From an uncultured Gammaproteobacteria bacterium (GTDB lineage: Bacteria > Patescibacteriota > Microgenomatia > UBA10105 > UBA927), in contig CAZEVT010000002.1 in the NCBI GenBank assembly GCA_964515005.1, positions 28,968 through 92,967 on the forward strand: DNA of 64,000 bases, in the 5' to 3' direction. The stretch's first letter is position 1; the number at the start of each line of letters is the position of its first letter. Positions 8,862-62,464 of this stretch are shown in pieces. Under the pieces are notes generated by a model. It had not been told where the DNA came from, ran no database searches, and saw only the letters and a program-made list of their open reading frames with translations. The position numbers were made by a program, and so were the translations under genes.

Positions 8862-9947
8862 TTAGGGGTTGCCTGTCTCGTAATATAGTTGAGTATTGGG
8901 CGGAGCCGGAAGCAAATCTCCAGTTTTACCATCTATCGTCATACCCGGAGGATATGGGACAAAAATCATTGTCCCTTCCGGAGCTGGTATAAAATAATAT
9001 CCCGCCACGTTTCCGCACATGCGGCAGTCTCCATCAGCATACCAATAGCCTGTTTCTCCCCGCGAAACTAATTGTGTAATAATAAATCCAGTCCCTTTAT
9101 CATTAAGGATCCATTGAGTTTTTGCCACCTCTTCAAATAATTTACCACCCTTCACATATGGTCCAACTGCGTGGGGCATTTGTAAATCTTCCTCTACTGA
9201 ATCTTGAGATAATTCGGGTTGCGGTAAAACATACCGCAAAGGAATTTCTCCTAGTCTTTTAGAATCTTCTATGGATCTATATATCTCTTTTGGTTGAGCT
9301 GATTCATTGTTACTCTTAGATAAGATCGCCACATTGGCTGCTTGAATCGGTTCCGACACCGGAATTTCTATAGTTGCAGGAGTAACTTTTAACCCACACG
9401 CAGCTAAGATAATGAGCGGCGATACGCGAACAGCAACTTTTGCCGTTAAACCGCTTATATCAAGTATTTTTGCGCTTGTTGGATCATCAGGATCTAACTC
9501 TTTTTGCAAGTAGGCACCGTATGCTTCAAACACATTTTGTGCAGTATCTGTTGCCTTTTTGGTTAATTCATGCGTTTCCCCATGAATTTTATGCGTCTGA
9601 GGTATGTTTGCAAGAGAGTCCAGAGCAAAATACTGAAGTGATGTTAAAGCGCTTGTTTGATCTGGTGTAAGCGCCTTGGGATTTGCGTATGCCCAACTCA
9701 GTTGATCCGACATCGTCTCAGGTTTTTTGTCTCCAGCGCGCAAAAGATGCATGTCATCTTCTGTGGCAGATAGGGGTCCAAAAAGTGAAAAAAGGGCTTC
9801 TGATGCGCGGGATCCACGCATTCCCTCCTTTTGGAAAATATTAAGGTGTTCTCGTATTGTCCGATCTCCGAGGCCTTTTGCTAAAGTAAATACAACCAAA
9901 TCTCCTGTGCCCTGGTCTGCTGACGGCATAAGTTCTGGCATATTCAT
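8862..9947 (-). CDS. Hypothetical protein (low-GC island)
   Basis: 361-aa ORF with no recognisable motifs. Local GC is clearly below that of the flanking pilus genes. Confidence 0.4.
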   Translation of the reverse strand: MNMPELMPSADQGTGDLVVFTLAKGLGDRTIREHLNIFQKEGMRGSRASEALFSLFGPLSATEDDMHLLRAGDKKPETMSDQLSWAYANPKALTPDQTSALTSLQYFALDSLANIPQTHKIHGETHELTKKATDTAQNVFEAYGAYLQKELDPDDPTSAKILDISGLTAKVAVRVSPLIILAACGLKVTPATIEIPVSEPIQAANVAILSKSNNESAQPKEIYRSIEDSKRLGEIPLRYVLPQPELSQDSVEEDLQMPHAVGPYVKGGKLFEEVAKTQWILNDKGTGFIITQLVSRGETGYWYADGDCRMCGNVAGYYFIPAPEGTMIFVPYPPGMTIDGKTGDLLPAPPNTQLYYETGNP

Positions 9948-10122
9948 ATGTACCCTATAGTATCATATTTGCACATTACTGTCAATCAACTGTACAGTGT
10001 CTACGGGCTCTTTTGCAACTACAAGGCTTCTTTAGGTATAGTATAGTATCTGTTTCTTGTCAAGCACATTGTATGCTTCAAAAATCTTAGCAAACATGCG
10101 GCCTTAAAATCTATATTACTCC

Positions 10123-14706: not shown

Positions 14707-15918
14707 TCATTTGAACTGTGATGTCAAGTTATAAATCGGGGTGATGACGGAAATGACGATAAATCCAACGCCGACTCCCAAGACTACCATGATAATAGGC
14801 TCGATTGCGGTCGTGAGGCCTTTGACGAGTATTTCCGACTCGCTCTGGAAATAGTGCGACAGCTTCATGAGCGTCTCGTCAAGCTTGCCGGTTTCCTCAC
14901 CGACCTTCATCATCTGGGATACAATCGGCGGAAATACGTCGTGCTGGGCAAATGAGTCGCCCAAAGGCAGCCCTTTCTCAACTTTTTTTGCAATATCGGC
15001 AATCGCGGTCCTAAAAAGGACATTGGCGAGCGAATCTTTGAGAATCTGGAGTCCGTCCAGTATATGAATGCCGGACCCGATGAGCATCCCTAAGGTCCTC
15101 GTAAACTCAACAAGAATGATCTTTTTGGTAAGTTCGCCAAACAAAGGAATCTTGAGAACCAAGCGGTCGATTGTCTGCTGTCCCATGGCCGTTGCCCGCC
15201 ATGTTCTGAATCCCCAGGCGCCCGCGCCCGCGCCAATGATCACGAGCCACCAGAACCGGACAAAGAATCCGGAAACGGACATGAGGAGTCGCGTCGTCCA
15301 GGGAAGCGAAATGTTAAAGTCGCGGTACAAATCCGTCAGCTTGGGGACGACAACCACCATCATGACGCCAACGACCCCCACCATACCGATAAGAATGATG
15401 ATCGGGTAGATCATCGCACCCGACACCTTGCTCCTAAACTCACGCTGGGCCTCCAGGGAATCCGCAAGCCGGGTCAACACCTGATCCAGGGTGCCTGACG
15501 CTTCTCCTGCACGGACAAGGGCGAGAAATGTGCCGGAAAAGTACTTCGGATATTTGGCAAGGGCGTCTCCCAGGTTGCCGCCGCCCACGATTTGATGTTC
15601 CACATCAACCAAGAGCTCGGCAAACACTTTGTTGGTCGCCTGCGTCCGAAGTATGGTGAGCGCTTCCGGAAGTGATAGGCCCGCCGTGACCATGGTAGAG
15701 AGCTGGCGGGTAAAATTGGCAATGTCGCTCGCGCTTACCCTTTTGAACATCTGCTCAAAGCTCGCAAGCGAAAGTCCTTCCTTGGACTCCGCGATCGAAA
15801 CGACAAACAACTGCTTGTCATGAAGCAGGCGGACGGCGACTTGCGAATTTGGCGCTTCAACCAACCCCGAAATAATCTGGGATTGCGCATTTTGTGCTTT
15901 GTACTGAAAAACAGCCAT
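14707..15918 (-). CDS. pilC: Type IV pilus platform protein PilC (GspF family)
   Basis: Two GspF repeats and three transmembrane segments, 403 aa. Directly downstream of pilT. Confidence 0.9.
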   Translation of the reverse strand: MAVFQYKAQNAQSQIISGLVEAPNSQVAVRLLHDKQLFVVSIAESKEGLSLASFEQMFKRVSASDIANFTRQLSTMVTAGLSLPEALTILRTQATNKVFAELLVDVEHQIVGGGNLGDALAKYPKYFSGTFLALVRAGEASGTLDQVLTRLADSLEAQREFRSKVSGAMIYPIIILIGMVGVVGVMMVVVVPKLTDLYRDFNISLPWTTRLLMSVSGFFVRFWWLVIIGAGAGAWGFRTWRATAMGQQTIDRLVLKIPLFGELTKKIILVEFTRTLGMLIGSGIHILDGLQILKDSLANVLFRTAIADIAKKVEKGLPLGDSFAQHDVFPPIVSQMMKVGEETGKLDETLMKLSHYFQSESEILVKGLTTAIEPIIMVVLGVGVGFIVISVITPIYNLTSQFK

Positions 15919-17027: not shown

Positions 17028-18749
17028 TTAGTCCTGCGCAACCCGGAGCACTTCCTCAAGTGACGTTGTCCCTTCCATGGCCTTTATGTATCCGTCCTGT
17101 TTCATGGTCATCATGCCTTCGGCAACTGCCGCGTCTTCGATGTCCTTCATTGAGGCTCGCGCGGCAATGCGTTTGCTGATTTCGCCTGATACCGGCAGGA
17201 CTTCAAAAACACCGATCCGTCCCAAATACCCGGATCCGCCGCATGCCGTACACGGCTGACCGTTTATGGTCCCCTTACCCCGGTATAATACAATGTTTTT
17301 GTCTTTGGGAAGCAAAGGGCCCAGTACGTCGGTAATATCTTTTTTCGTTGCCTCGTCGGGCGCAAACTCTTCCTTACACGTCGAGCAAATTTTTCGGGCG
17401 ATCCGCTGCCCCACGACCGCCGAGAGCGAAGAAACGATAAGAAAGGGTTCAGCGCCTAAATCCAAAAGTCGGGGAATTGCGCCTGACGCATTATTCGTGT
17501 GCAGGGTGGAAAATACTAGGTGTCCGGTAAGGGCCGCTTGGATCGCTAGCTCCGTCGTTTCACGGTCACGAACTTCTCCCACGAGGATAATATTGGGGTC
17601 TTGACGTAAAAAGCTTCGCAGACCCGTGGCAAAGGTGAGGCCTGCCGCGGGATTTATCTGCACCTGATTGACGCCGGTTATTTCATACTCAACCGGATCC
17701 TCAAGCGTCATGATATTGACCCTCGCGTTATTGAGGCGCGACAAAACCGCATACAAAGTCGTGGTTTTTCCGGATCCGGTCGGTCCGGTAACGAGGATGA
17801 TGCCGTGCGGACGCGCGATATTGGCCTCCAGATTCTTGAGGGCCAAGCCACGCAGCCCCAGGTCCTGCAAGGTCGGGATGCCGCCGGACTTTTTCAAGAG
17901 CCGCATCACGATTTTTTCTCCGTGCACGGTCGGCAAAGTGGAGACACGAAGGTCAACTTCGGATTCTGCCATTTTAAAATTAAACCGGCCGTCCTGGGGA
18001 ATACGCCGTTCGTCAATTTTCATATTCCCCAAAATTTTAATGCGTGAAACGACCGCATCATGAAGTCGCTTGGGGAGAACCAGCCGTTCCTGCAAAATGC
18101 CGTCGACGCGGTAGCGGACGCGCGTATCGCCCGTTTGCGGCTCGATATGGACGTCGGAAGCGCGCAGACGAATCGCCTGCTCCAGGGTCGCCGAGACAAT
18201 TTGGGCAATGGGCGCTTCCCGGATAACCTCGCCCAGACGGCCCGCCTCATACGTTTTTACTTCGGGTTGGGTAGATTCCTTCAGCGCCGCCGATACATCT
18301 TCTCCCAAATTTTGCGAATACGTCTCGTCAATGGCAGCCGTGATATCAGCCGCCACTGCCATATACGGACGCACGCGCTTGCCGGATTTCTTTTCAATAA
18401 ATTCAATAACCTGAAAATCCAAGGGGTCCATCATGGCAACCGATAGTTCGTTGGTTGCGGCGTCAAACTGGAACGGCAAGAGGGTATACCGGCGGGCAAC
18501 CGGCTCCGACACAAAATTTACAATTGCCGGGGCTATTGCGCGACCGGCAAGCGTGATGAAGGGGATATTAAGAGACGCGGCTTTGGCATGGGCCAGATCT
18601 ACATCAGACACCAGGCGTTTTTCCCGAAGGATATCTTCGACTCCGGTGCCGCGGGCCAAAGACTCGGTCATCACGGCATCTGCCTGTGCCTGAACGAGCT
18701 TACCGGCGGCGGTGAGTGCGGAAAGAATGGCTTGGGCAGTTGCTGGCAT
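17028..18749 (-). CDS. pilB: Type IV pilus assembly ATPase PilB (GspE family)
   Basis: Walker A GPTGSGKTTT and a C-terminal tetracysteine (CSTCKEEF...CTACGGSG). Start placed at the internal Met (MPATAQAIL) so it does not overlap the divergent holB-like gene; the track ORF runs to 18797. Confidence 0.85.
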   Translation of the reverse strand: MPATAQAILSALTAAGKLVQAQADAVMTESLARGTGVEDILREKRLVSDVDLAHAKAASLNIPFITLAGRAIAPAIVNFVSEPVARRYTLLPFQFDAATNELSVAMMDPLDFQVIEFIEKKSGKRVRPYMAVAADITAAIDETYSQNLGEDVSAALKESTQPEVKTYEAGRLGEVIREAPIAQIVSATLEQAIRLRASDVHIEPQTGDTRVRYRVDGILQERLVLPKRLHDAVVSRIKILGNMKIDERRIPQDGRFNFKMAESEVDLRVSTLPTVHGEKIVMRLLKKSGGIPTLQDLGLRGLALKNLEANIARPHGIILVTGPTGSGKTTTLYAVLSRLNNARVNIMTLEDPVEYEITGVNQVQINPAAGLTFATGLRSFLRQDPNIILVGEVRDRETTELAIQAALTGHLVFSTLHTNNASGAIPRLLDLGAEPFLIVSSLSAVVGQRIARKICSTCKEEFAPDEATKKDITDVLGPLLPKDKNIVLYRGKGTINGQPCTACGGSGYLGRIGVFEVLPVSGEISKRIAARASMKDIEDAAVAEGMMTMKQDGYIKAMEGTTSLEEVLRVAQD

Positions 18750-18791
18750 AGTATTTATTATTGATGCTTTTGGCGTATAATGCAAGGGTTC

Positions 18792-19457
18792 ATGCATGCA
18801 TTTCTTATTCTTGGAAAGAACAAAGAAGATCGAGACCGCGAAATCGCCAGTCGAATCGCAGCCTGGAAAATTTCTTCGTGGGACACGATCCGGCTGACAT
18901 CAGAGTCCCCATCAATCGGAATAGAATCGGTTCGTGATTTTGTCCGCGCCCTTACCCAATCGCCCCTCAACTCTCCTTTTAAAGTCGGCGTTATAGAGGA
19001 AATAGAACGCCTCACAACAGAAGCACAAAACGCACTTTTAAAAACCCTCGAGGAGCCGCCGCCGCATACCTATCTTCTTGCCGAAACAAGTGCAGTGGAG
19101 TCTCTTCTTCCCACCATCCTTTCACGATTCCTTCTCGTCAATCTCGGCGCAGGAGTCGCATCAAATGAAGAAAAAAACACAACAAAGCAAATGCTCATTG
19201 CTATTGCGGGATCGGGGATTGCCAACCGTTTGCAGCGTGTCGACGAACTTGCGCGAAGTCGCGAAGATGGCAGGCGACTCGTTGACGCGATGCTGACGAC
19301 CATCAGTACCATGCTCCATGAAAAAGATCCCGTTATACCAACCCACGCGCTTACCCGCTTCACACGAAAACTCCTTGCCGCCCGATCACAACTGGCCGTC
19401 AACGTCAACCCGCGACTAGTTCTGGACAACGTATTTATTTCGATTTCAGAGTCATAA
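18792..19457 (+). CDS. holB: DNA polymerase III delta-prime-like clamp-loader subunit
   Basis: Has the Walker B/sensor-1 region T(x)n NALLKTLEEPP and SRFLLV. No intact Walker A, as expected for delta-prime. Confidence 0.55.
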   Translation: MHAFLILGKNKEDRDREIASRIAAWKISSWDTIRLTSESPSIGIESVRDFVRALTQSPLNSPFKVGVIEEIERLTTEAQNALLKTLEEPPPHTYLLAETSAVESLLPTILSRFLLVNLGAGVASNEEKNTTKQMLIAIAGSGIANRLQRVDELARSREDGRRLVDAMLTTISTMLHEKDPVIPTHALTRFTRKLLAARSQLAVNVNPRLVLDNVFISISES

Positions 19458-20497: not shown

Positions 20498-23400
20498 ATG
20501 GCCAAAATTTCTGACAAATATTCAGGAAGCGACATCGTTGTTTTGGAAGGACTTGAGCCCGTCCGGAAGCGCCCGGCCATGTACATCGGCACAACCGCCC
20601 TTGCCGGCGTCCACCACTGCTTAAACGAAATTATCGACAACTCCATCGACGAAGCTTTAGCCGGATACGCCAAAAACGTCTGGGTGACGATCCACAAAGA
20701 CGACAGCGTAACCGTTATTGACGACGGCCGCGGCATTCCGATTGATAAAAATCCGAAATATAAGGTCTCGGCTCTCGAGCTCGTCATGACCAAGCTCCAC
20801 GCAGGCGGCAAATTTGAGGGCAAAGCATACAAAGTCTCCGGAGGCTTGCACGGGGTTGGTGCATCAGTCGTCAATGCGCTTTCCAGTGCCCTCAAGGTCG
20901 AAGTGCACCGCGAGGGAGGGGCATTCGTTCAGGAATATAAGAGAGGCAAACCGTTGGGACCCATCAAGAGGGTGGGGAAGGCAAAGGACACCGGCACGAC
21001 CGTTGTCTTTTTGCCCGACACCGAGATATTTAAAGAAGGAATTGCACTCAACTTTGAAATGGTCAAAAAACAGGTCCGCGACCGGGCCTATCTTATTGCC
21101 CGCCTCGCGTTTCATCTTACTGACGAGCGAAGCGGCGAGGCGGCCCACTACTATTTTGAAGGCGGCATCACGTCACTGGTGAAAGCATTAAATAGAAATA
21201 AAGTCGTCGTCCACACTCCCATTTCAATAACGAGATCCGCAGAAGATGGCAGCATGAACGTCGAAGTGGCAATCCAGTACAACGACGGATTTTCCGAAAT
21301 CGTCGAATCGTACGTCAACGTGATTGCAACGGCCGAGGGGGGCACACACCTCACGGGCTTTCGTATGGCCTTGACGCGCGCCGTTAACGACTACGGCAAG
21401 AAAATAGGCGCGTTTAAGGCAGACTCCGACGCCATAACAGGCGAGGATACCCGCGAAGGGTTGACTGCCATCGTCTATGTGAAAATGCCTTCCCAATATC
21501 TGCAATTTGAGGGGCAAACTAAGGGCAAACTCGGTAACGCCGAGGTCCAGCCGTTTGTCCAGTCAGCAGTCAAAGAGGGGCTCGATACCTACTTTGAAGA
21601 AAACCCCGCAGAGGGACGAAAGATTTTAGAAAAAGTCTACCTCGCGGCAAGGGCGAGGCTCGCGGCCAAAGCCGCCAAAGACGCCGTCATTCGAAAAGGC
21701 GCGCTTGAAGGCGCAAGCCTTCCCGGCAAGCTCGCCGACTGTCAGGAAAAAGATCCGAGTGTCTCCGAACTTTTCATCGTCGAGGGAGATTCCGCAGGCG
21801 GATGTTTTTCCGCTGATACAAAAGTTGCGCTCACGGATGGACGAAATTTGGCATTCAAGGATCTGATCAAAGAATACGATTCGGGCAGACAGAATTACTG
21901 CTACACCATCCAAAAAAATGGTGCCGTGGGTGTTGCCCCAATACAAAATCCGAGGATCACCAATAAACATACAACCGTCATCAAAATTATTCTGGATAGC
22001 GACGAAGAAATCACGTGTACTCCTGACCATCTTTTCATGCTTCGGGACGGCTCATATAAAGAAGCACACCATCTGACCCCTGCAGATTCTTTGATGCCTT
22101 TGAGGCGCCAATTGTCTCATGTCGGCAAGTGGATTACCATCGAAGGCTATGAATTGGTGTTTGATCCAGCACTCAACCGATGGCTCTTCACTCATGTACT
22201 GGCAGATGAGTACAATCTCCAGCGCGGCGTATATAAACAAGAGGACGGGAACCACCGCCATCATATCGACTTTAACAAACAAAACAACAATCCCGATAAC
22301 ATTACGAGGATTTCAAAGGATGATCATCTTGCCCTCCACAGGAGTATTCTTGAAAAAACTATTCATAGACCCGATGTCAAACAAAAAGTCGCCGCCCTCC
22401 ATAAAACCGCCGCGTTTCGTCAAAAAATAAGACTGGCAATGACCCAACCCCGTATGCGCAAGCTTTTGAGTGCTCGTGCTAAAAAACAATGGCAAGACCC
22501 TACATATAAAACGTATATGACTCAAAAATTTCTCGATTTCTATTCGAACAATAAAGAATATCAGGAAAAAAACAATGCTCTTTTAGATAAAGAACAAAAG
22601 AAATATTGGGGTGATACACAGCACAGACATCTTCAGGCTGATCGCGTGCAGACATTCTTTGTGAACCATCCGGAACGCAAAGAACAACTTCGCGCATTGG
22701 CCAACAATCAGTGGTCAGACGAATCGCTGCGCACATGGCGCCGTCAAAAGACAAAAGAGCAGTGGACGAACGCATTCCGATTACAACGAAAGGACTCATA
22801 TAATAAGATGTATCTTCGAAAAGCGCTTGCAACACTCCATTCCATCTATGAAGCAAAAGGGGAAATAAGTCCAAGTGAGTATCAACACATACGATTAACT
22901 TCACGGGACAAAAGCCTTATTCGATACGAAACAATCCGCCGGAGATTTTTCAACGATGATGAGCATCTATTTGAGCAGGCCATTATGAACTATAATCACA
23001 AAATTAGAAAAATAATTTCTCTTGAGAAACGAATGGACGTGTATGACATAGAGGTCCCCGGAACACATAATTTTGCCCTGGCTTCCGGAGTGTTTGTCCA
23101 CAACAGCGCCAAACAGGGCCGCGACCGCAAATTCCAGGCTATCTTGCCGCTTCGGGGGAAAATCCTCAATACCGAGCGGGCACGGCTTGATAAGATCATC
23201 GAATTTGAAGAACTCAAGGCGCTCGTTATAGCGCTCGGCATGGGCATTGCCGATAGCTTAAATCCCGAGAAGCTTCGCTATCACCGCGTGATCATCATGA
23301 CGGATGCCGACGTCGACGGCGAACACATCATGACGCTACTTTTGACCTTCTTCTATCGTCATTTACCCTATATCGTTGAGAAAGGGCACCTCTACATCGC

Positions 23401-23722
23401 CCAGCCGCCCCTCTATAAAATCACCTGGGCCAAGGAATCCCATTACGCCTACTCCGATGACGAGCGGGACACGATCACCAAAGAACAGGGCAAATCCATG
23501 AAGACCGCCCCCACCATTCAACGGTACAAAGGCCTCGGAGAAATGAACCCCGACCAGCTCTGGGAAACCACCATGAATCCGGTCAACCGCGTCATGCGGC
23601 AGGTAACGATTGTGGACGCGGCCGCGGCAGACAACGTGTTTGCCATGCTCATGGGGGACGAGGTGCCGCCGAGAAAGAGATTTATTCAGACCCATGCAAA
23701 AAATGCGACATTGGATATATAA
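20498..23722 (+). CDS. gyrB: DNA gyrase subunit B, interrupted in frame by a 434-aa intein
   Basis: GHKL ATPase motifs at the N-terminus. TOPRIM EGDSAGG, then CFSADTKVAL...VFVHN, then SAKQGRDRKF. The exteins total 640 aa, a normal GyrB length. Confidence 0.95.
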   Translation: MAKISDKYSGSDIVVLEGLEPVRKRPAMYIGTTALAGVHHCLNEIIDNSIDEALAGYAKNVWVTIHKDDSVTVIDDGRGIPIDKNPKYKVSALELVMTKLHAGGKFEGKAYKVSGGLHGVGASVVNALSSALKVEVHREGGAFVQEYKRGKPLGPIKRVGKAKDTGTTVVFLPDTEIFKEGIALNFEMVKKQVRDRAYLIARLAFHLTDERSGEAAHYYFEGGITSLVKALNRNKVVVHTPISITRSAEDGSMNVEVAIQYNDGFSEIVESYVNVIATAEGGTHLTGFRMALTRAVNDYGKKIGAFKADSDAITGEDTREGLTAIVYVKMPSQYLQFEGQTKGKLGNAEVQPFVQSAVKEGLDTYFEENPAEGRKILEKVYLAARARLAAKAAKDAVIRKGALEGASLPGKLADCQEKDPSVSELFIVEGDSAGGCFSADTKVALTDGRNLAFKDLIKEYDSGRQNYCYTIQKNGAVGVAPIQNPRITNKHTTVIKIILDSDEEITCTPDHLFMLRDGSYKEAHHLTPADSLMPLRRQLSHVGKWITIEGYELVFDPALNRWLFTHVLADEYNLQRGVYKQEDGNHRHHIDFNKQNNNPDNITRISKDDHLALHRSILEKTIHRPDVKQKVAALHKTAAFRQKIRLAMTQPRMRKLLSARAKKQWQDPTYKTYMTQKFLDFYSNNKEYQEKNNALLDKEQKKYWGDTQHRHLQADRVQTFFVNHPERKEQLRALANNQWSDESLRTWRRQKTKEQWTNAFRLQRKDSYNKMYLRKALATLHSIYEAKGEISPSEYQHIRLTSRDKSLIRYETIRRRFFNDDEHLFEQAIMNYNHKIRKIISLEKRMDVYDIEVPGTHNFALASGVFVHNSAKQGRDRKFQAILPLRGKILNTERARLDKIIEFEELKALVIALGMGIADSLNPEKLRYHRVIIMTDADVDGEHIMTLLLTFFYRHLPYIVEKGHLYIAQPPLYKITWAKESHYAYSDDERDTITKEQGKSMKTAPTIQRYKGLGEMNPDQLWETTMNPVNRVMRQVTIVDAAAADNVFAMLMGDEVPPRKRFIQTHAKNATLDI
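21803..23104 (+). mobile_element. Intein (Hint domain plus HNH-type homing endonuclease) in gyrB
   Basis: Cys1 follows GG. Block B is ITCTPDH, and the C-terminus VFVHN|S gives HN plus Ser+1. Internal HNH motif NHRHHIDFNKQNNNPDNITRISKDDHLALH. In-frame length 1302 nt. Confidence 0.8.
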
Positions 23723-23751: not shown

Positions 23752-25755
23752 ATGAATGCAGTCACACTATCACTCGCGGCCGGAATCCTTTCGGTTCTCT
23801 ACGGGATATTTTTGTCGGTTCGTATCATGCGGCTTCCCACGGGAACGCCGGATATGAACGCCATTGCCGCCGCTATTGCCGAAGGGGCAAAAGCATTCTT
23901 GGCCCGGCAATATAAAACAATCGGACTTCTGGCGCTCGGCATTGCGGCTCTTCTGTATTACACGCTGGGTCCTGACTCCGCCGTTGCCTTCGGGATCGGC
24001 GCGGTGTGCTCGGCCGTTGCCGGATTTATCGGCATGAATATTTCGGTTAGGGCCAATATCCGCACCGCGCAGGCTGCCAAAACCGGACTTGCCGCGGCCC
24101 TGAACGTCGCGTTTTCCGGAGGAGCCGTAACGGGTCTTATGGTTGCGGGGCTCGCGCTTCTTTCGGTTGCCGCCACATATATGACGCTCGGAAATGAAGT
24201 GGGAGGACAGTTGGATCTCAAACCGCTTATTGCCCTTGGATTCGGAGGGTCTTTGATATCGGTATTTGCCCGCCTCGGCGGCGGAATCTACACGAAGGGT
24301 GCCGACGTGGGAACCGATATGGTCGGCAAAATCGAAAAGGGGATTCCGGAGGATGACCCGAGGAACCCCGGGGTCATTGCGGATCTGGTCGGCGACAACG
24401 TCGGGGACGATGCGGGCATGGCTGCAGACCTATTTGAAACATACGTCGTGACCGCAGTTGCTGCCATTTTACTCGGCCAGCTTCTGCTGCCGGGATTTGC
24501 AAATGCGATCTTCTATCCGATGGTCGTGGGGGCAGGTGGCATTGTTGCATCCATCATCGGCATCGGATTTGTAAAACTCGGGCGGGGCAAAAAGATTATG
24601 CAGGCCCTCTATAAAGGACTTCTGGCCGCGTCTCTTTTGTCGGCCGTCCTCTTTTTTGTCATCACACAGTTTATGATGGCCGGAAACGGTGTCTATGGGG
24701 CAGGAAGCTTGTTTTTGGCAAGTCTCATCGGCATCATCGTAACCCTTGGCATGGTTGCCATCACCGAATTCTATACCTCCAAGTCTTACGGCGCGATCAA
24801 AGCGCTGGCAAAGGCAAGTGAAACCGGACACGGCACCAATATCATCGCAGGGCTTGCCCTTTCGATGAAATCAACCCTTGCCCCCGTGATTCTGATTGCC
24901 GCAGCCATGCTTGGAGCGTACGCCTTGGCCGGCCTCTATGGCATCGCGGTTGCCGCCATGAGTATGATATCCCTCACCGGCATTGTGGTTGCCATTGATG
25001 CGTTTGGCCCGATAACAGACAACGCAGGCGGCATTGCGGAGATGACCAACCAACCGGAAGAGGTGAGAAAAATTACCGATGCCCTGGACTCGGTCGGCAA
25101 TACCACCAAAGCCGTGACCAAGGCCTACGCGATTGCGTCGGCGGGACTTGCCGCACTCGTCCTTTTTGCCTCATATACCCAGGAGCTTGGCGGCAGTCTT
25201 ACCTTTAGTCTGTCGGATCCGAATGTGGTCGTCGGGCTTTTGATTGGCGCCGCCATGCCCTATGTATTTGCAGCCCTTGCGATGGAGGCAGTAGGCAAAG
25301 CCGCCGGAGCCATAGTTATCGAAGTACGGCGGCAGTTTAAAACAATAAAAGGAATCATGACGGGCAAAGCCAAACCCGAATATGGCAAGGCCGTCGACAT
25401 TGTCACCAAGGCGGCGCTCCGAGAAATGACCGTGCCCGCACTCTTACCCGTTGCCGCTCCCATTGTGGTGGGATTTCTCTTGGGGCCATCTGCCCTCGGC
25501 GGACTCCTCATGGGAACGATCGTCACGGGACTGTTTGTCGCTATCTCCATGACAACGGGAGGCGCGGCCTGGGACAATGCCAAAAAGTATATTGAGGAAG
25601 GCCACTTGGGCGGCAAAGGAAGTCCTGCCCATCAGGCGGCAGTCACCGGCGATACCGTGGGCGACCCGTATAAAGATACCGCGGGACCGGCCATAAATCC
25701 CATGATCAAGGTCACGAATATCGTGGCGCTTTTGATCGCCGGATTCCTCCGCTGA
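23752..25755 (+). CDS. hppA: Membrane-bound proton/sodium-translocating pyrophosphatase
   Basis: [29 protein letters not shown] and a C-terminal [14 protein letters not shown] signature. About 16 transmembrane segments. Confidence 0.9.
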
Positions 25756-25770
25756 ACTCAAACGTAACCT

Positions 25771-28287
25771 ATGAATATTGGGAAAGTGAACCAGTCGGAA
25801 ATCGTTGCCGAAATGCAGAAGTCGTACCTCGACTATGCGATGTCGGTTATTGTCGCGCGCGCACTTCCTGATGTCCGGGACGGCCTCAAGCCCGTCCACC
25901 GCAGAATACTTTACGCCATGCACCAGGTGGGTCTGCGGCACACGGCTCGCTACACCAAAAGCGCCAAGGTTGTGGGAGAAGTGCTCGGGAAATACCACCC
26001 GCACGGCGACGCGCCGGTGTATGAGGCCATGGTGCGCCTCGCCCAGGATTTCTCCATGCGCTACCGGCTTATTGATGGCCAAGGTAATTATGGGTCAGTA
26101 GACGGAGATCCGCCGGCTGCCATGCGGTACACCGAGTGCCGGCTTGCGGCGATCGCGGACGAAATGCTTTTGGATATTGAAAAGGAAACGGTAGCATTCA
26201 CCCCAAACTTTGACGGGACGATTGACGAACCCCTGTACCTTCCTGCCAAACTCCCGAATCTTCTTCTCATGGGCTCAGAGGGAATTGCCGTCGGCATGGC
26301 CACCAAAATCCCGCCGCACAATTTGCGGGAAGTAGCTGGAGCCATTGCGGCCATGATCGATACGGTAAAGCTCCAAAAGAAAAAACCAGTCGAAGGTGTC
26401 AGCGAAGTAAAAACAGATACGCAATTTACCTTTGATATCACGACCGACCAGCTCATGGAACACATCCAGGGGCCGGATTTCCCCACAGGCGGGGCCATCT
26501 ACGACATAAGCGAAATCAAGGCGGCATACGCCACGGGCCGCGGCAAGATCGTCATGCGCGGGAAAGCGGAAATTGAGGATATCGGACAGGGAAAGTCCGC
26601 AATCGCCATCACTGAGCTCCCGTACCAGGTAAACAAAGCACATCTGGTTGCCAAAATCGCGGATCTGGTTCACGAGAAAAAACTCGAGGGGATAAGCGAC
26701 CTTCGCGATGAGTCGGACCGCCGGGGCATTCGTGTGTACATAGAGCTTAAGCGTGACGCCCGGCCCAAACAGGTACTTAATAATTTGTTCAAGCACACGG
26801 CACTGCAGACCACATTTCCCGTCAACATGGTCGCCTTGGTCGATAACACGCCGCAAACGTGTTCTTTGAAACTCATTCTTGAAGAATATATAAAACACCG
26901 CCATGATGTCGTCCGCCGTCGGAGCGAATTTGAACTCAAAGAAGCCCGCGCCCGCGAACACATTCTCGAGGGACTTAAAATCGCCGTTGACCACATTGAT
27001 GAGGTTATCGCGATCATCAAAAAGAGCAAAGACGCCGACGATGCTAAGGGGAAGCTCATGACGCGTTTCAAGCTTTCGGATCTCCAGGCCACTGCAATTT
27101 TGGACATGCAGCTGCGGCGCCTCGCCGCCCTAGAGCGCCAAAAAATCGAGGATGAACTCGCGATGATCCGCGAAACGATTGCCTATCTTACCGATCTTCT
27201 TGCCCACCCCGAGAAAATTCTCAAAGTCGTCAAGGAAGAGCTCACCCACCTCAAAGAAAAGTACGGCGACGAGCGGAAAACCCGGGTATTTAAAAGTAAA
27301 GTCGGCGAGTTTTCAGAAGAACAGCTTATTGCCAATGAAGAAGTCATCATCACCATGAGCGAATCGGGCTATATCAAAAGGCTCCCGCGCGGGACGTTTA
27401 AGATGCAGGAGCGGGGTGGCAAAGGCGTCATAGGCATGACGACCAAGGAAGAAGATACGATTGATAAAATAGTTTCTGCCCAAACCCACGACAATATGCT
27501 TTTCTTCACCGACCGCGGGCGCGTCTACCAGGTGCGCGTCTGGGATATCCCCGAGACCTCGCGCCAGGCCAAGGGCCAGGCCGTCGTCAATCTCATCAAT
27601 ATCGAATCCACGGAAAAAGTTACCAGCGTCCTCACCTACAGCCTCAAGCGGGACGAGCAGAAGGAATCAGGCGTCAAGTTTATTTTGATGGCAACAAAGC
27701 GTGGAACCGTCAAAAAATCCAAGCTCACGGAATATGAAAATATCCGCAGAAGCGGCTTGGTTGCCATTAAACTCGAAAAAGACGATGAGCTCACTTGGGC
27801 CCGTCTGACGAGCGGATCCGATGATATTCTCCTCGTTTCCCACGAGGGAAAATCCATCCGGTTTACCGAGGCAGAAGTCCGGCCTACGGCACGCGACACG
27901 ATGGGCGTCCGCGGGATACTCCTGAAAGGCACAGACTTTGTCGTATCGGTCGACGTCATCAACGACGAGACCAAAAAAGCGGACTTCCTGACGATCATGG
28001 AGAAGGGGATTGGCAAAAAAACCGCGATCCGCGATTTCCCCAAGCAAAAGCGCGGCGGGCAGGGAGTGAAAGTAGCGGACATCAAAGACAGAACCGGGAA
28101 GGTCATGGTATCCCAAATCGTCCCAACCGACACCGATAGCGTCATCCTCACCTCAATGAAGGGTCAAGTCGTCAAGCTTCCGATTAACTCCGTCCCGCGC
28201 CTTGGACGTGCTACTTCGGGCGTCATCCTCATGCGTTTCACAAACAAATCCGACACCATCGCCGCCGCAACCTGCCTCACAAAATAG
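25771..28287 (+). CDS. gyrA: DNA gyrase subunit A
   Basis: Active-site region around RYTE, and a GyrA-box ([10 protein letters not shown]) in the C-terminal beta-pinwheel, which points to gyrase rather than topoisomerase IV. Confidence 0.95.
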
Positions 28288-60119: not shown

Positions 60120-61028
60120 ATGAAACGCCATACTGCCTACCTGTACCTCCTTCTGGTTTCAATCATCTGGGGAGCCGCATCTCCGGTCGTCAAAAATACC
60201 CTCACCTGGTTTGATCCGTGGATATTCCTCACCTATCGGTTTGGGATAAGCGCCGCAATCGCCATTCCGTACCTTTGGCTCACGCGGGCCAAGATTCCCA
60301 AAAAGTCTTCGAGTCTGGGGCTCGTACTTCTTACCGGACTCATATCTACTCCCCTTTCGCTCTGGCTGTTTTTTGAGGCGCTAAGTAAAACCACCGCGCT
60401 TTCCGGAAGTTTGTTGACTGCTGTGGGGCCGCTTCTTATGATCCTTGGGGGAGCCATATTTTTCCATGACCGGGTCACGCACCACGAACGGATCGGCATT
60501 GCCGTCACCATCGTGGGTGCGCTCGTCGCCGCAGTTGGCCCGCTCATTCTCAACGGCCAACCCGATACGCTCGGAAAATTTGAAGGAAACATGATTATGC
60601 TCGCTGCAGTAGTCACGGATCTTATAGGCGCACTGCTGACCAAGCAGGCCATGGAAAGAAAAATAAATGCGGCGTTCCTGGCCCAATCACAGTTTATCCT
60701 CGGGTTTGCTATTTTTCTTCCGATTGTCCTTCTTCAGAGGTCAGCCGGTGACATCGTGAGCGTCATAACCCGCGCGCCGCTTGAGGCGCATCTGGGAGTC
60801 CTTTTTATGGCCGTGTTTTCCGGAACCATCGCCTATACGTTGCGGAATATCGCCATCAAAACTGTTGAGATATCCGAGTCTGCACTTTTCATCTATCTCC
60901 AACCTTTGTGGGCGGCGATTCTTGCTGTTCTCTGGCTTGGGGAGCCGATAACCAAATCATACATTCTCGGAGGCGTCATTATTGCAGTCGGAGTACTCGT
61001 TGCGCAGCAGCGTCGACACCGAAGCTAA
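60120..61028 (+). CDS. EamA/DMT-family transporter
   Basis: Ten transmembrane segments with EamA duplication. Confidence 0.6.
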   Translation: MKRHTAYLYLLLVSIIWGAASPVVKNTLTWFDPWIFLTYRFGISAAIAIPYLWLTRAKIPKKSSSLGLVLLTGLISTPLSLWLFFEALSKTTALSGSLLTAVGPLLMILGGAIFFHDRVTHHERIGIAVTIVGALVAAVGPLILNGQPDTLGKFEGNMIMLAAVVTDLIGALLTKQAMERKINAAFLAQSQFILGFAIFLPIVLLQRSAGDIVSVITRAPLEAHLGVLFMAVFSGTIAYTLRNIAIKTVEISESALFIYLQPLWAAILAVLWLGEPITKSYILGGVIIAVGVLVAQQRRHRS

Positions 61029-61047
61029 ACCGTGATATAATTCTTCT

Positions 61048-61356
61048 ATGAAATCCGATATTCACCCGAAATGGTACCCGGCTGCAGTTGTTTCCTGCGC
61101 GTGCGGCAACAAGTTTGTCGTGGGCGCAACCAAGCCCGAGCTTCGTGCGGAAATCTGCTACAAATGCCACCCGTTTTTCACGGGCGAAATGAAGTTTGTC
61201 GATACCATGGGGCGCGTTGACCGCTTCCAGCAAAAACAGAAAGCAGCCGAAGCCCAGGCGACCGTCCTTGCTGCAAAAAAGAAAAAGAAAACAGAACGCG
61301 AACAGCAGCTTCGCAATCCCAAGTCGCTGAAGGACATGTTGATGGGACTGACGTAA
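61048..61356 (+). CDS. rpmE: 50S ribosomal protein L31 (zinc-ribbon type, with a C-terminal extension)
   Basis: [10 protein letters not shown]...CACGNKF...[10 protein letters not shown]. Its TAA stop overlaps the next ATG by 1 nt. Confidence 0.9.
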
Positions 61357-62060
61357 TGAACTCCGATATAGCAATCCTCGAATTTCGACCCGGTCCGGGG
61401 GGCGAAGAAGCAAAAAATTGGGCCGCGGACCTCATGCGCATGTACACTCGCTACGCAAACCTTTCGGGCTGGAAAGTAGAGCAAATAGCCGATATGGCGA
61501 TTCGCATCCGAGGCGCGCAGGCATTCACGAAGCTCCAGTATGAGGCAGGCACCCACCGCGTCCAGCGCGTGCCCTCGACGGAACGCTCGGGGCGCATTCA
61601 CACCTCTACCGCCACGGTGGCGGTGCTTCCGGAGATTCCTGAAACCGAAGTGACGATCCGCCCCGAAGATATTGAATGGGATTTTTTCCGCAGCGGCGGC
61701 GCAGGTGGACAAAATGTAAATAAGGTCTCATCTGCCGCGCGCATTCGCCATAAACCGTCGGGCATAGTTGTATCTGCGCAAACAGAACGCGACCAGTACC
61801 AAAACCGACAAGTTGCCCTCTCCATGCTGCGGGCAAAGCTCTGGGAACTGGAAGAAATAAAAGCAGCGGCAACGATGGGGGCGGCCAGAAGTGTGATCGG
61901 CCGCGGCATGCGGGCGGAAAAAATCCGTACGTACAACTTTCCCCAAAACCGCGTCACCGACCACCGCATCGGCAAAAGCTGGCACAATCTGGACGACATT
62001 ATCGAAGGAAAACTTACGAAGATTACCGAAGCGATGACTGCAACAGGCGCTACAATCTAA
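61356..62060 (+). CDS. prfA: Class-I peptide chain release factor (RF1-like PxT) lacking the N-terminal domain 1
   Basis: 234 aa. Aligns from RF1 domain 2 (DIAILEFRPGPGGEEA) onward. Codon-recognition motif PST (RVQRVPSTERSGRIHTS) and GGQ motif (SGGAGGQNVNK). Confidence 0.7.
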   Translation: MNSDIAILEFRPGPGGEEAKNWAADLMRMYTRYANLSGWKVEQIADMAIRIRGAQAFTKLQYEAGTHRVQRVPSTERSGRIHTSTATVAVLPEIPETEVTIRPEDIEWDFFRSGGAGGQNVNKVSSAARIRHKPSGIVVSAQTERDQYQNRQVALSMLRAKLWELEEIKAAATMGAARSVIGRGMRAEKIRTYNFPQNRVTDHRIGKSWHNLDDIIEGKLTKITEAMTATGATI

Positions 62061-62464
62061 TATCTATTCCTACCGAAGAACTCTTGATAGGGGCCATTCT
62101 TCTTTCGAAGTTCTTCTTCTTGCTCTCTTTTTTCAAGTGCAAGCACTTCTCTGGCGGCATCTTGATACACGCTTTGCTCTTTAGGATTCCATAAATCTGG
62201 AACCTCCTCTTTTGGGAACTTCTTTTTGTATCGTGTAATAACTTCTCTCGCTTCAGGCTCAACCCATTTGCGAGTCTTCTCTGGTAAGGCTTGGAAAAAA
62301 TTTACCGGCCTCTCTGACGTTGTATGATTGTGAGCGTTGAGTAATCGATTTCCCAATTCGTCTCTTTCTTCTTTGTTCGGAGCACGAAGCATCAAAAATT
62401 TGGCTAGCATTGCAAATACCGGAAAATGTTTGTGTTGTCTGCCACTCATAGGATGCACTACCAA
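62057..62464 (-). CDS. Hypothetical protein
   Basis: 135 aa, charged and helical. Convergent with prfA, overlapping by 4 nt. Confidence 0.35.
   Translation of the reverse strand: MVVHPMSGRQHKHFPVFAMLAKFLMLRAPNKEERDELGNRLLNAHNHTTSERPVNFFQALPEKTRKWVEPEAREVITRYKKKFPKEEVPDLWNPKEQSVYQDAAREVLALEKREQEEELRKKNGPYQEFFGRNRY

Follow-up and report, generated by a model that had tools for sequence, protein, structure and literature searches.

We identified a gene for a short class-I peptide chain release factor in a 64-kb stretch of contig CAZEVT010000002.1 (hereafter the window, meaning all 64,000 nucleotides (nt) analysed). The open reading frame (ORF), taken from the ORF listing, occupies positions 61356..62060 of the plus strand, from an ATG start to a TAA stop, and encodes 234 amino acids (aa). 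We consider it likely that this is the housekeeping prfA gene, encoding release factor 1 (RF1), of a Candidatus Gottesmanbacteria genome, and that its lineage has lost all of domain 1 together with 10 residues of a domain-2 hairpin. Gottesmanbacteria is a phylum in the Microgenomates group of the Patescibacteria, or Candidate Phyla Radiation (CPR). An earlier note on this DNA had described a class-I release factor without domain 1 that retains a PxT-type tripeptide (PST) and a GGQ motif, and had likened it to the RF-H/PrfH class. The first part of that description is borne out by the profile alignments and motifs reported below, and the likeness to PrfH is not.

Identity of the protein

Family profiles place the 234-aa protein with RF1. 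In the comparison of prfA, prfB and prfH profiles suggested in the earlier note, the NCBIfam prfA models scored best (NF001859, 313.8 bits; TIGR00019, 306.5 bits), ahead of prfB (215.2 bits) and prfH (TIGR03072, 68 bits), and also of ArfB (55.5 bits). The prfA alignments begin at model position 106 or 114 and run to the end (model 106-341). Similarly, Pfam recovered only positions 101-194 of the 194-position PCRF profile, together with a complete RF-1 domain (residues 96-204, E 5.5e-37). The N-terminal helical domain 1 of the four-domain RF1 architecture is absent.

Structural comparisons gave the same ranking. A search of solved structures returned RF1 chains at the top (E 9e-75 to 1e-59), followed by RF2 (~1e-45) and PrfH (7e-13), and also matched C12orf65. 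In structural alignments the short RF1 is 44-50% identical to canonical RF1. The alignment with Thermotoga maritima RF1 (1rq0) begins at T. maritima residue 85, and in that with Thermus thermophilus RF1 residue 5 of the short protein corresponds to chain residue 106. An AlphaFold2 model (mean predicted local distance difference test (pLDDT) 70.7, predicted template modelling score 0.50) has secondary-structure elements in the order of release factor domains 2, 3 and 4, and its best Foldseek matches are to ribosome-bound RF1 (template modelling score ~0.8, E 1e-22). The gene and its main motifs are as follows.

61356..62060 (+): short form of prfA, domains 2, 3 and 4 only (ORF listing, domain and family scans, structure alignment, AlphaFold2 model and fold search)
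61392..61412 (+): GPGGEEA, residues 13-19, N-terminal tip of a helix, equivalent to G116/E119 of T. thermophilus RF1; G13, G15, G16 and E18 invariant in 34 homologues
61479..61487 (+): site of the 10-residue deletion in the domain-2 beta-hairpin, with gaps after residues 42 and 43 relative to 1rq0
61572..61580 (+): PST, the RF1-type PxT tripeptide, residues 73-75, read from the sequence; P73 and T75 invariant
61704..61712 (+): GGQ, residues 117-119, read from the sequence; G117, G118 and Q119 invariant in 34 homologues

The T. thermophilus residues G116/E119, Q181, P184-x-T186 and I192-H193-T194 correspond to G15/E18, Q70, P73-S74-T75 and I81-H82-T83 of the short RF1. We take these positions to be the stop-codon readers seen in the T. 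thermophilus RF1-ribosome crystal structure, in which the GPGGEEA helix would read the first stop base. GGQ is the catalytic motif for peptidyl-tRNA hydrolysis. All of the decoding and GGQ residues, including Q70, I81, H82 and T83, are invariant across the 34 homologues, with the exception of the middle residue of PxT, for which homologues carry PST (59), PTT (42), PAT (8), PET (5) and others. Other RF1s and RF2s have a conserved GG-x-KE motif in the loop that the hairpin deletion shortens. The distance from GxGGxEA to HRVQR is 54 in all 117 Gottesmanbacteria RF1s and 64 in all 119 other CPR RF1s. By profile and residue comparison, the window protein is a predicted RF1 minus domain 1 and not a PrfH-type factor.

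We rejected two other assignments. An RF2 (prfB) identity was set aside as the tripeptide is PST rather than SPF and prfB scores 215 against 314 bits for prfA, and an ArfB/ICT1-type identity as the ArfB score falls below its cutoff of 100 bits and domains 2 and 4 are present. ArfB (YaeJ), ICT1 and C12orf65 share the GGQ domain 3 with the short RF1. They lack the codon-reading domains 2 and 4 and carry a basic C-terminal tail, whereas the short RF1 has complete domains 2 and 4 and no such tail.

Two further sequence features were observed. After PxTE, at residue 77 (61584..61586), Gottesmanbacteria RF1s invariably have Arg (TER); several other short CPR RF1s have Lys there, and canonical RF1s such as that of T. 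maritima have Ser (TES). Domain 3 (61668..61790) carries the signature EDIEWDFFRSGGxGGQNVNKVS(S/T)A.R..HKP(S/T)GI, which is common to the short RF1 and to full-length RF2s of WWE3 and other Patescibacteria (L044-L050). Because this signature is shared, RF2 loci were caught by the RF1 peptide scan. Lineage-specific co-evolution of the two factors, or gene conversion between RF1 and RF2, could account for the sharing.

Start site and probable transcription unit

The gene follows rpmE, and the surrounding features are listed here.

61013..61041 (+): promoter-like site, TCGACA-17 nt-TATAAT with a TG extension; found by scan, 11 of 12 matches, ends 6 nt before the rpmE ATG
61048..61356 (+): rpmE, ribosomal protein L31, 102 aa; Pfam Ribosomal_L31 over residues 1-63, E 3e-26; NCBIfam L31, 89.7 bits
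61354..61358 (+): TAATG overlap of the rpmE stop TAA (61354-61356) and the release factor ATG (61356-61358), with one base in common
62057..62464 (-): convergent ORF, 135 aa, overlapping the RF1 stop codon by 4 nt; no Pfam match

Upstream of the ATG, the release factor frame runs back about 45 codons to a stop, with no intervening ATG, GTG or TTG, and this stretch is rpmE overlapped in another frame. The longer in-frame extension from a non-ATG start that had earlier been raised as a possibility is thus absent. An upstream extension or frameshift was likewise rejected, as the out-of-frame rpmE stretch contains neither a start codon nor release factor similarity. The minus-strand ORFs 61158..61712 and 61598..61999 inside the release factor gene were taken as spurious, the conserved frame being that of the plus strand. 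The view that the ATG overlaps the L31 stop and that the short start is genuine stands: relatives with 4-465 nt between rpmE and the release factor gene use the identical start. Since this start is kept at spacings from -4 to +465 nt, its conservation is independent of the overlap.

The gaps along hisS, EamA, rpmE and prfA are 1 nt, 19 nt and -1 nt. In about 33 of 38 related loci a TGnTATAAT element precedes the rpmE ATG by 6-11 nt, and we infer that the site at 61013..61041 is a promoter. Since it ends only 6 nt before the rpmE ATG, the rpmE-prfA transcript is probably leaderless or near-leaderless. RF1 is probably translated by reinitiation at UAAUG in this genome. Relatives do not keep the convergent ORF at 62057..62464 (in L001 an Exo_endo_phos gene takes its place); the ORF is outside the system and delimits the 3' end of the rpmE-prfA unit.

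Conservation across Gottesmanbacteria

We searched a collection of 5.8 billion proteins with the short RF1. The best 120 matches are 81-100% identical to it and 225-253 aa long (80 of the 120 are 232 aa), and their named sources are Candidatus Gottesmanbacteria. Database names for these proteins are inconsistent, ranging over "peptide chain release factor 1", "PCRF domain-containing protein", "release factor-like" and "hypothetical protein".

At the species level, we surveyed one genome per GTDB species, taking 10 kb on each side of the release factor gene (20-kb loci). About 37 Gottesmanbacteria-type genomes each have one short RF1, which starts MN(T/P/S)D(I/V)AI(L/M)EFRPGPGGEEA. Among the genomes with the short RF1 are the closed chromosomes OY969569.1 (995 kb) and OY970230.1 (1.09 Mb). 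An rpmE gene precedes the release factor gene in 37 of 38 loci, at stop-to-start distances of -4 to +465 nt, and most of these spacers are too short for a domain 1 of ~105 aa. A hidden Markov model (HMM) built from domain 1 of 55 full-length RF1s had no match in the 64-kb window or in the ~37 20-kb loci. As controls, the same model recovered domain 1 of the full-length RF1 of L043 (E 7.5e-22) and the 70-aa stub in L003 (E 9e-5).

Comparison of the window gene with 32 species gave a proportion of non-synonymous differences (pN) of 0.10-0.19, against a saturated proportion of synonymous differences (pS) of 0.65-0.90, indicating strong purifying selection. As judged from these genomes, the short form is fixed across the Gottesmanbacteria lineage.

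Irregular records were also encountered in the survey. The short RF1 is disrupted in two metagenome-assembled genomes (MAGs) from GTDB, as a 432-aa read-through ORF in L040 (10001..11299) and as a split into 172 and 78 aa in L042 (8808..9496). These could be frameshifts, assembly errors or real decay. Many species-representative MAG records with a Gottesmanbacteria-type locus (L007, L009-L015, L018, L019, L021 and others) are titled 'uncultured Gammaproteobacteria bacterium', and the hisS-rpmE-prfA-CtpB synteny of L041 is Microgenomates-like although its title says Saccharibacteria. Such titles look like taxonomic labelling errors.

Orthology and distribution in the CPR

A search of 50%-identity representatives showed a sharp drop past the Gottesmanbacteria cluster. 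Among the nearest relatives beyond it, P0122 (303 aa, 63% identical) has an N-terminal helical stub of ~70 aa and P0123, from Candidatus Amesbacteria, is 256 aa long with a 21-aa stub. Other near relatives are P0124 (331 aa) and P0126 (232 aa). An exact look-up of the window protein (P0001) returned no record, and the context of the window-type locus was read from P0002, a Joint Genome Institute (JGI) protein identical to the window RF1. The order hisS-EamA-rpmE-prfA is common to the window gene and P0122, and the Amesbacteria P0123 gene follows rpmE at a distance of 3 nt, with the same genes around it (S6, SSB, CtpB protease, EamA and hisS) in rearranged order. A neighbour-joining tree of domains 2-4, a rough distance tree without support values, groups the window protein with P0019, P0122, P0123 and P0124 in a single clade. 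The hairpin deletion is common to P0122, P0123, P0126 and all 117 motif-bearing Gottesmanbacteria proteins, and occurs in none of 119 other CPR RF1s. Since stub-bearing relatives occupy the same locus and fall in one clade, the window gene is, on this comparative evidence, the positional orthologue of prfA, and domain 1 appears to have shrunk and then vanished in its lineage.

Breadth was assessed with a profile made from short and intermediate forms outside Gottesmanbacteria, for which the best 120 matches were retained and classed by what precedes GxGGxEA.

25 residues or fewer: 78 proteins, 234-251 aa
51-95 residues: 20 proteins, 287-309 aa
Full domain 1: 22 proteins, 337-383 aa

Short forms are scattered in the neighbour-joining tree (again without support values), so repeated loss of domain 1 within the CPR is possible. 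Forms outside the Gottesmanbacteria/Amesbacteria clade differ from the window protein in keeping the normal domain-2 hairpin. One of the short forms, P0350 (242 aa), is from Candidatus Portnoybacteria, a phylum of the Parcubacteria group, the other large branch of the CPR. The Amesbacteria P0123, the Portnoybacteria P0350 and P0122 all resemble the window gene in having domain 1 reduced or lost and rpmE directly upstream. On the Portnoybacteria contig (L053), an apparent 306-nt gap before the 242-aa RF1 is filled by an uncalled rpmE with a GTG start (9780..10001), whose stop overlaps the RF1 start as TAATG, as in the window.

The rpmE-prfA pair, sometimes overlapping, and short RF1s are thus both found in the sampled Microgenomates and Parcubacteria. 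The translational coupling proposed earlier holds as an overlap in this genome, in a few relatives (at spacings of -1 or -4 nt, 4 of the 37 Gottesmanbacteria loci overlap; the remainder have spacers of 4-465 nt) and in the Portnoybacteria L053. What is conserved more widely is only the adjacency of rpmE and prfA.

Alternative explanations

The protein might instead be an accessory, PrfH-like or rescue paralogue for special or damaged ribosome complexes, with normal termination carried out by a canonical full-length RF1 encoded elsewhere. We regard this as improbable. PrfH is likewise a class-I release factor homologue without domain 1 whose start overlaps or abuts the upstream gene (PMC1586002), and a second prfA is possible beyond the sequence scanned, which comprises the window and the 10-kb flanks. 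However, the prfH match covers only residues 96-193, which is domain 3, and its 68 bits are below the cutoff of 166.65. PrfH carries changes in its codon-recognition residues, and its gene always follows an RtcB-like gene (PMC1586002), whereas the short RF1 has the canonical, invariant RF1 decoding set and rpmE upstream, and the Pfam listings include no RtcB-like gene within 10 kb. Searches with phmmer and tblastn over the window and 54 loci found no second release factor gene in Gottesmanbacteria (~37 genomes), either in the window itself or in the 10 kb on each side of prfA. Like its relatives with a partial domain 1, the gene sits beside rpmE in the hisS-EamA-rpmE-prfA locus. The product is, as the earlier note suspected, most likely the primary RF1.

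A second alternative is a split gene, in which domain 1 is supplied in trans by a separate small protein or is replaced by an extension of L31. The L31 of the window has a Lys-rich C-terminal extension of ~35 aa (61237..61353), which ends in PKSLK(D/E)MLMGLK across Gottesmanbacteria. L31 is 99-103 aa long in this group, and the extension is conserved in related loci (L001-L042). Together with the tight linkage of rpmE and the short prfA across the CPR, this extra tail would suit such an arrangement. The candidate was rejected as a domain-1 remnant, as neither Pfam, NCBIfam nor the domain-1 HMM matched the tail, and the HMM scored no ORF of the window or the ~37 loci. In addition, the Portnoybacteria L31 beside a short RF1 has a short tail only. 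L31 lies at the bridge between the head and the central protuberance, far from the L11 stalk. We therefore hold a split gene to be very improbable.

Stop codon use bears on a third possibility, that the short protein is the sole, omnipotent class-I factor and reads UGA in addition to UAA and UAG. The 64 long non-overlapping ORFs of the window end in TAA (31), TGA (20, or 31%) and TAG (13), which upholds the earlier statement that UGA is not recoded, and several orthologous RF1 genes end in TGA where others end in TAA. Since TAG ends 13 of the 64 ORFs, RF1 activity is needed, and since UGA is used as a stop, an RF2 activity must exist. No RF2 gene is present in the window or the Gottesmanbacteria loci, and the invariant Arg77 (TER) stands where canonical RF1s such as that of T. 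maritima have Ser (TES). On the other hand, only ~2-8% of each genome was covered, so an unseen prfB is expected, and the recognition loop is otherwise that of a standard RF1. Other CPR lineages have an ordinary full-length RF2. Seven CPR RF2 loci (WWE3 and others) were met in the GTDB scan, with flanking genes that have no counterpart in the window. A profile was built from these seven loci of WWE3 and other Patescibacteria, and its best 120 CPR RF2s all have a full domain 1 (333-352 aa), with SPF in 117; this sample leans towards the lineages of the profile, and none of its members can be shown to come from Gottesmanbacteria. An omnipotent factor thus seems as far-fetched as a split gene.

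Finally, the interrupted copies in L040 and L042 might point to an artefact, such as a pseudogene truncated at its 5' end, a faulty assembly or a wrongly called start. This can be dismissed as next to impossible: the architecture recurs in ~37 independent species genomes and in thousands of metagenome proteins, the start is conserved, and non-synonymous divergence is low against saturated synonymous divergence.

Several points weigh against a housekeeping RF1 without domain 1. Identity and role are predicted here from sequence and structure comparison, and the confidence of the AlphaFold2 model is only moderate (mean pLDDT 70.7). The prfA scores of 313.8 and 306.5 bits are below the curated equivalog cutoffs of 400 and 423.25, so that the equivalog call formally failed; the shortfall arises because domain 1, a third of the model, is missing. 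The loci cover ~2-8% of each genome, and any additional full-length prfA, any prfC and the prfB gene would lie beyond them. Moreover, Escherichia coli RF1 is inactive on ribosomes lacking L11 (a reviewer's comment, PMC1586002), so loss of the domain that contacts L11 is not obviously neutral.

Other features of the window

Elsewhere in the window, a 1074-aa GyrB (20498..23722, +) contains an intein (Pfam Intein_splicing, residues 451-869), and a membrane H+-pyrophosphatase gene (23752..25755, +) lies between gyrB and gyrA (25771..28287, +). Type IV pilus or type II secretion genes encode a PilC-like T2SSF protein and a PilB-like T2SSE ATPase with an MshEN domain (14707..15918, -; 17028..18797, -).

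Proposed mechanism and implications

In canonical RF1 and RF2, domain 1 contacts the L11 stalk and RF3. We propose that the short RF1 would bind the A site at UAA and UAG and hydrolyse peptidyl-tRNA like canonical RF1. Having no domain 1 to touch the L11 stalk and RF3, the factor would terminate translation without these contacts, and might leave the ribosome spontaneously or by another route. The rpmE and prfA genes would be co-transcribed from the promoter abutting the rpmE start codon, prfA would be translated by termination-reinitiation at UAAUG in this genome, and UGA would be read by a separate RF2.

Compared with the canonical RF1 of T. thermophilus, E. coli and T. maritima, the short RF1 shares domains 2-4, PxT, the GxGGxE helix tip, the Q and I-H-T residues, GGQ and the switch-loop region. 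It lacks domain 1 (~105 aa) and 10 hairpin residues, and is 234 aa long against ~355 aa. Domain 1 is the least conserved release factor domain, and is dispensable for codon specificity and for peptide release in vitro (PMC1586002). As Mora et al. (2003) are cited in PMC1586002, an engineered RF1 without domain 1, and thus likewise composed of domains 2-4 only, releases peptides in vitro, works in vivo and supports growth, and cannot stimulate RF3, domain 1 being needed for the interplay with that factor. The Gottesmanbacteria form differs in being natural and fixed in a lineage, with an additional hairpin deletion, and is known here from its sequence.

Our full-text literature search, of incomplete coverage, found no description of a natural housekeeping RF1 without domain 1 or of truncated CPR release factors, and nothing usable on the distribution of RF3 in the CPR. 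The main text of a transposon-sequencing (Tn-seq) paper on Patescibacteria is silent on release factors. The short RF1 sequences are already public under inconsistent names, and as far as we found their natural loss of domain 1 is apparently undescribed, a prior description being possible. These names, and scores below the prfA cutoffs, also matter for annotation, as automated surveys could wrongly call RF1 absent.

We also considered whether the loss of domain 1 from RF1, and not from RF2, is a recurrent and adaptive feature of the CPR, which we think doubtful. If this were true, a large share of the CPR would terminate at UAA and UAG with a factor unable to touch the L11 stalk or RF3. The route of RF1 recruitment and recycling would then differ from that of model bacteria, and might be tied to the co-transcribed and sometimes coupled L31 gene.

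Laboratory deletions showed domain 1 to be dispensable for catalysis; here its deletion is fixed in a whole candidate phylum, and it is common elsewhere in the CPR, while the sampled CPR RF2s retain the domain. These organisms offer a natural experiment on the purpose of domain 1, and a minimal RF1 scaffold of 232-234 aa for structural and synthetic-biology work. The findings hint at simpler termination and factor recycling in ultra-small bacteria, in addition to other reductions of their ribosomes, and suggest that termination at UAA and UAG in Gottesmanbacteria and other ultra-small CPR may proceed without the usual contacts of RF1 to the L11 stalk and RF3.

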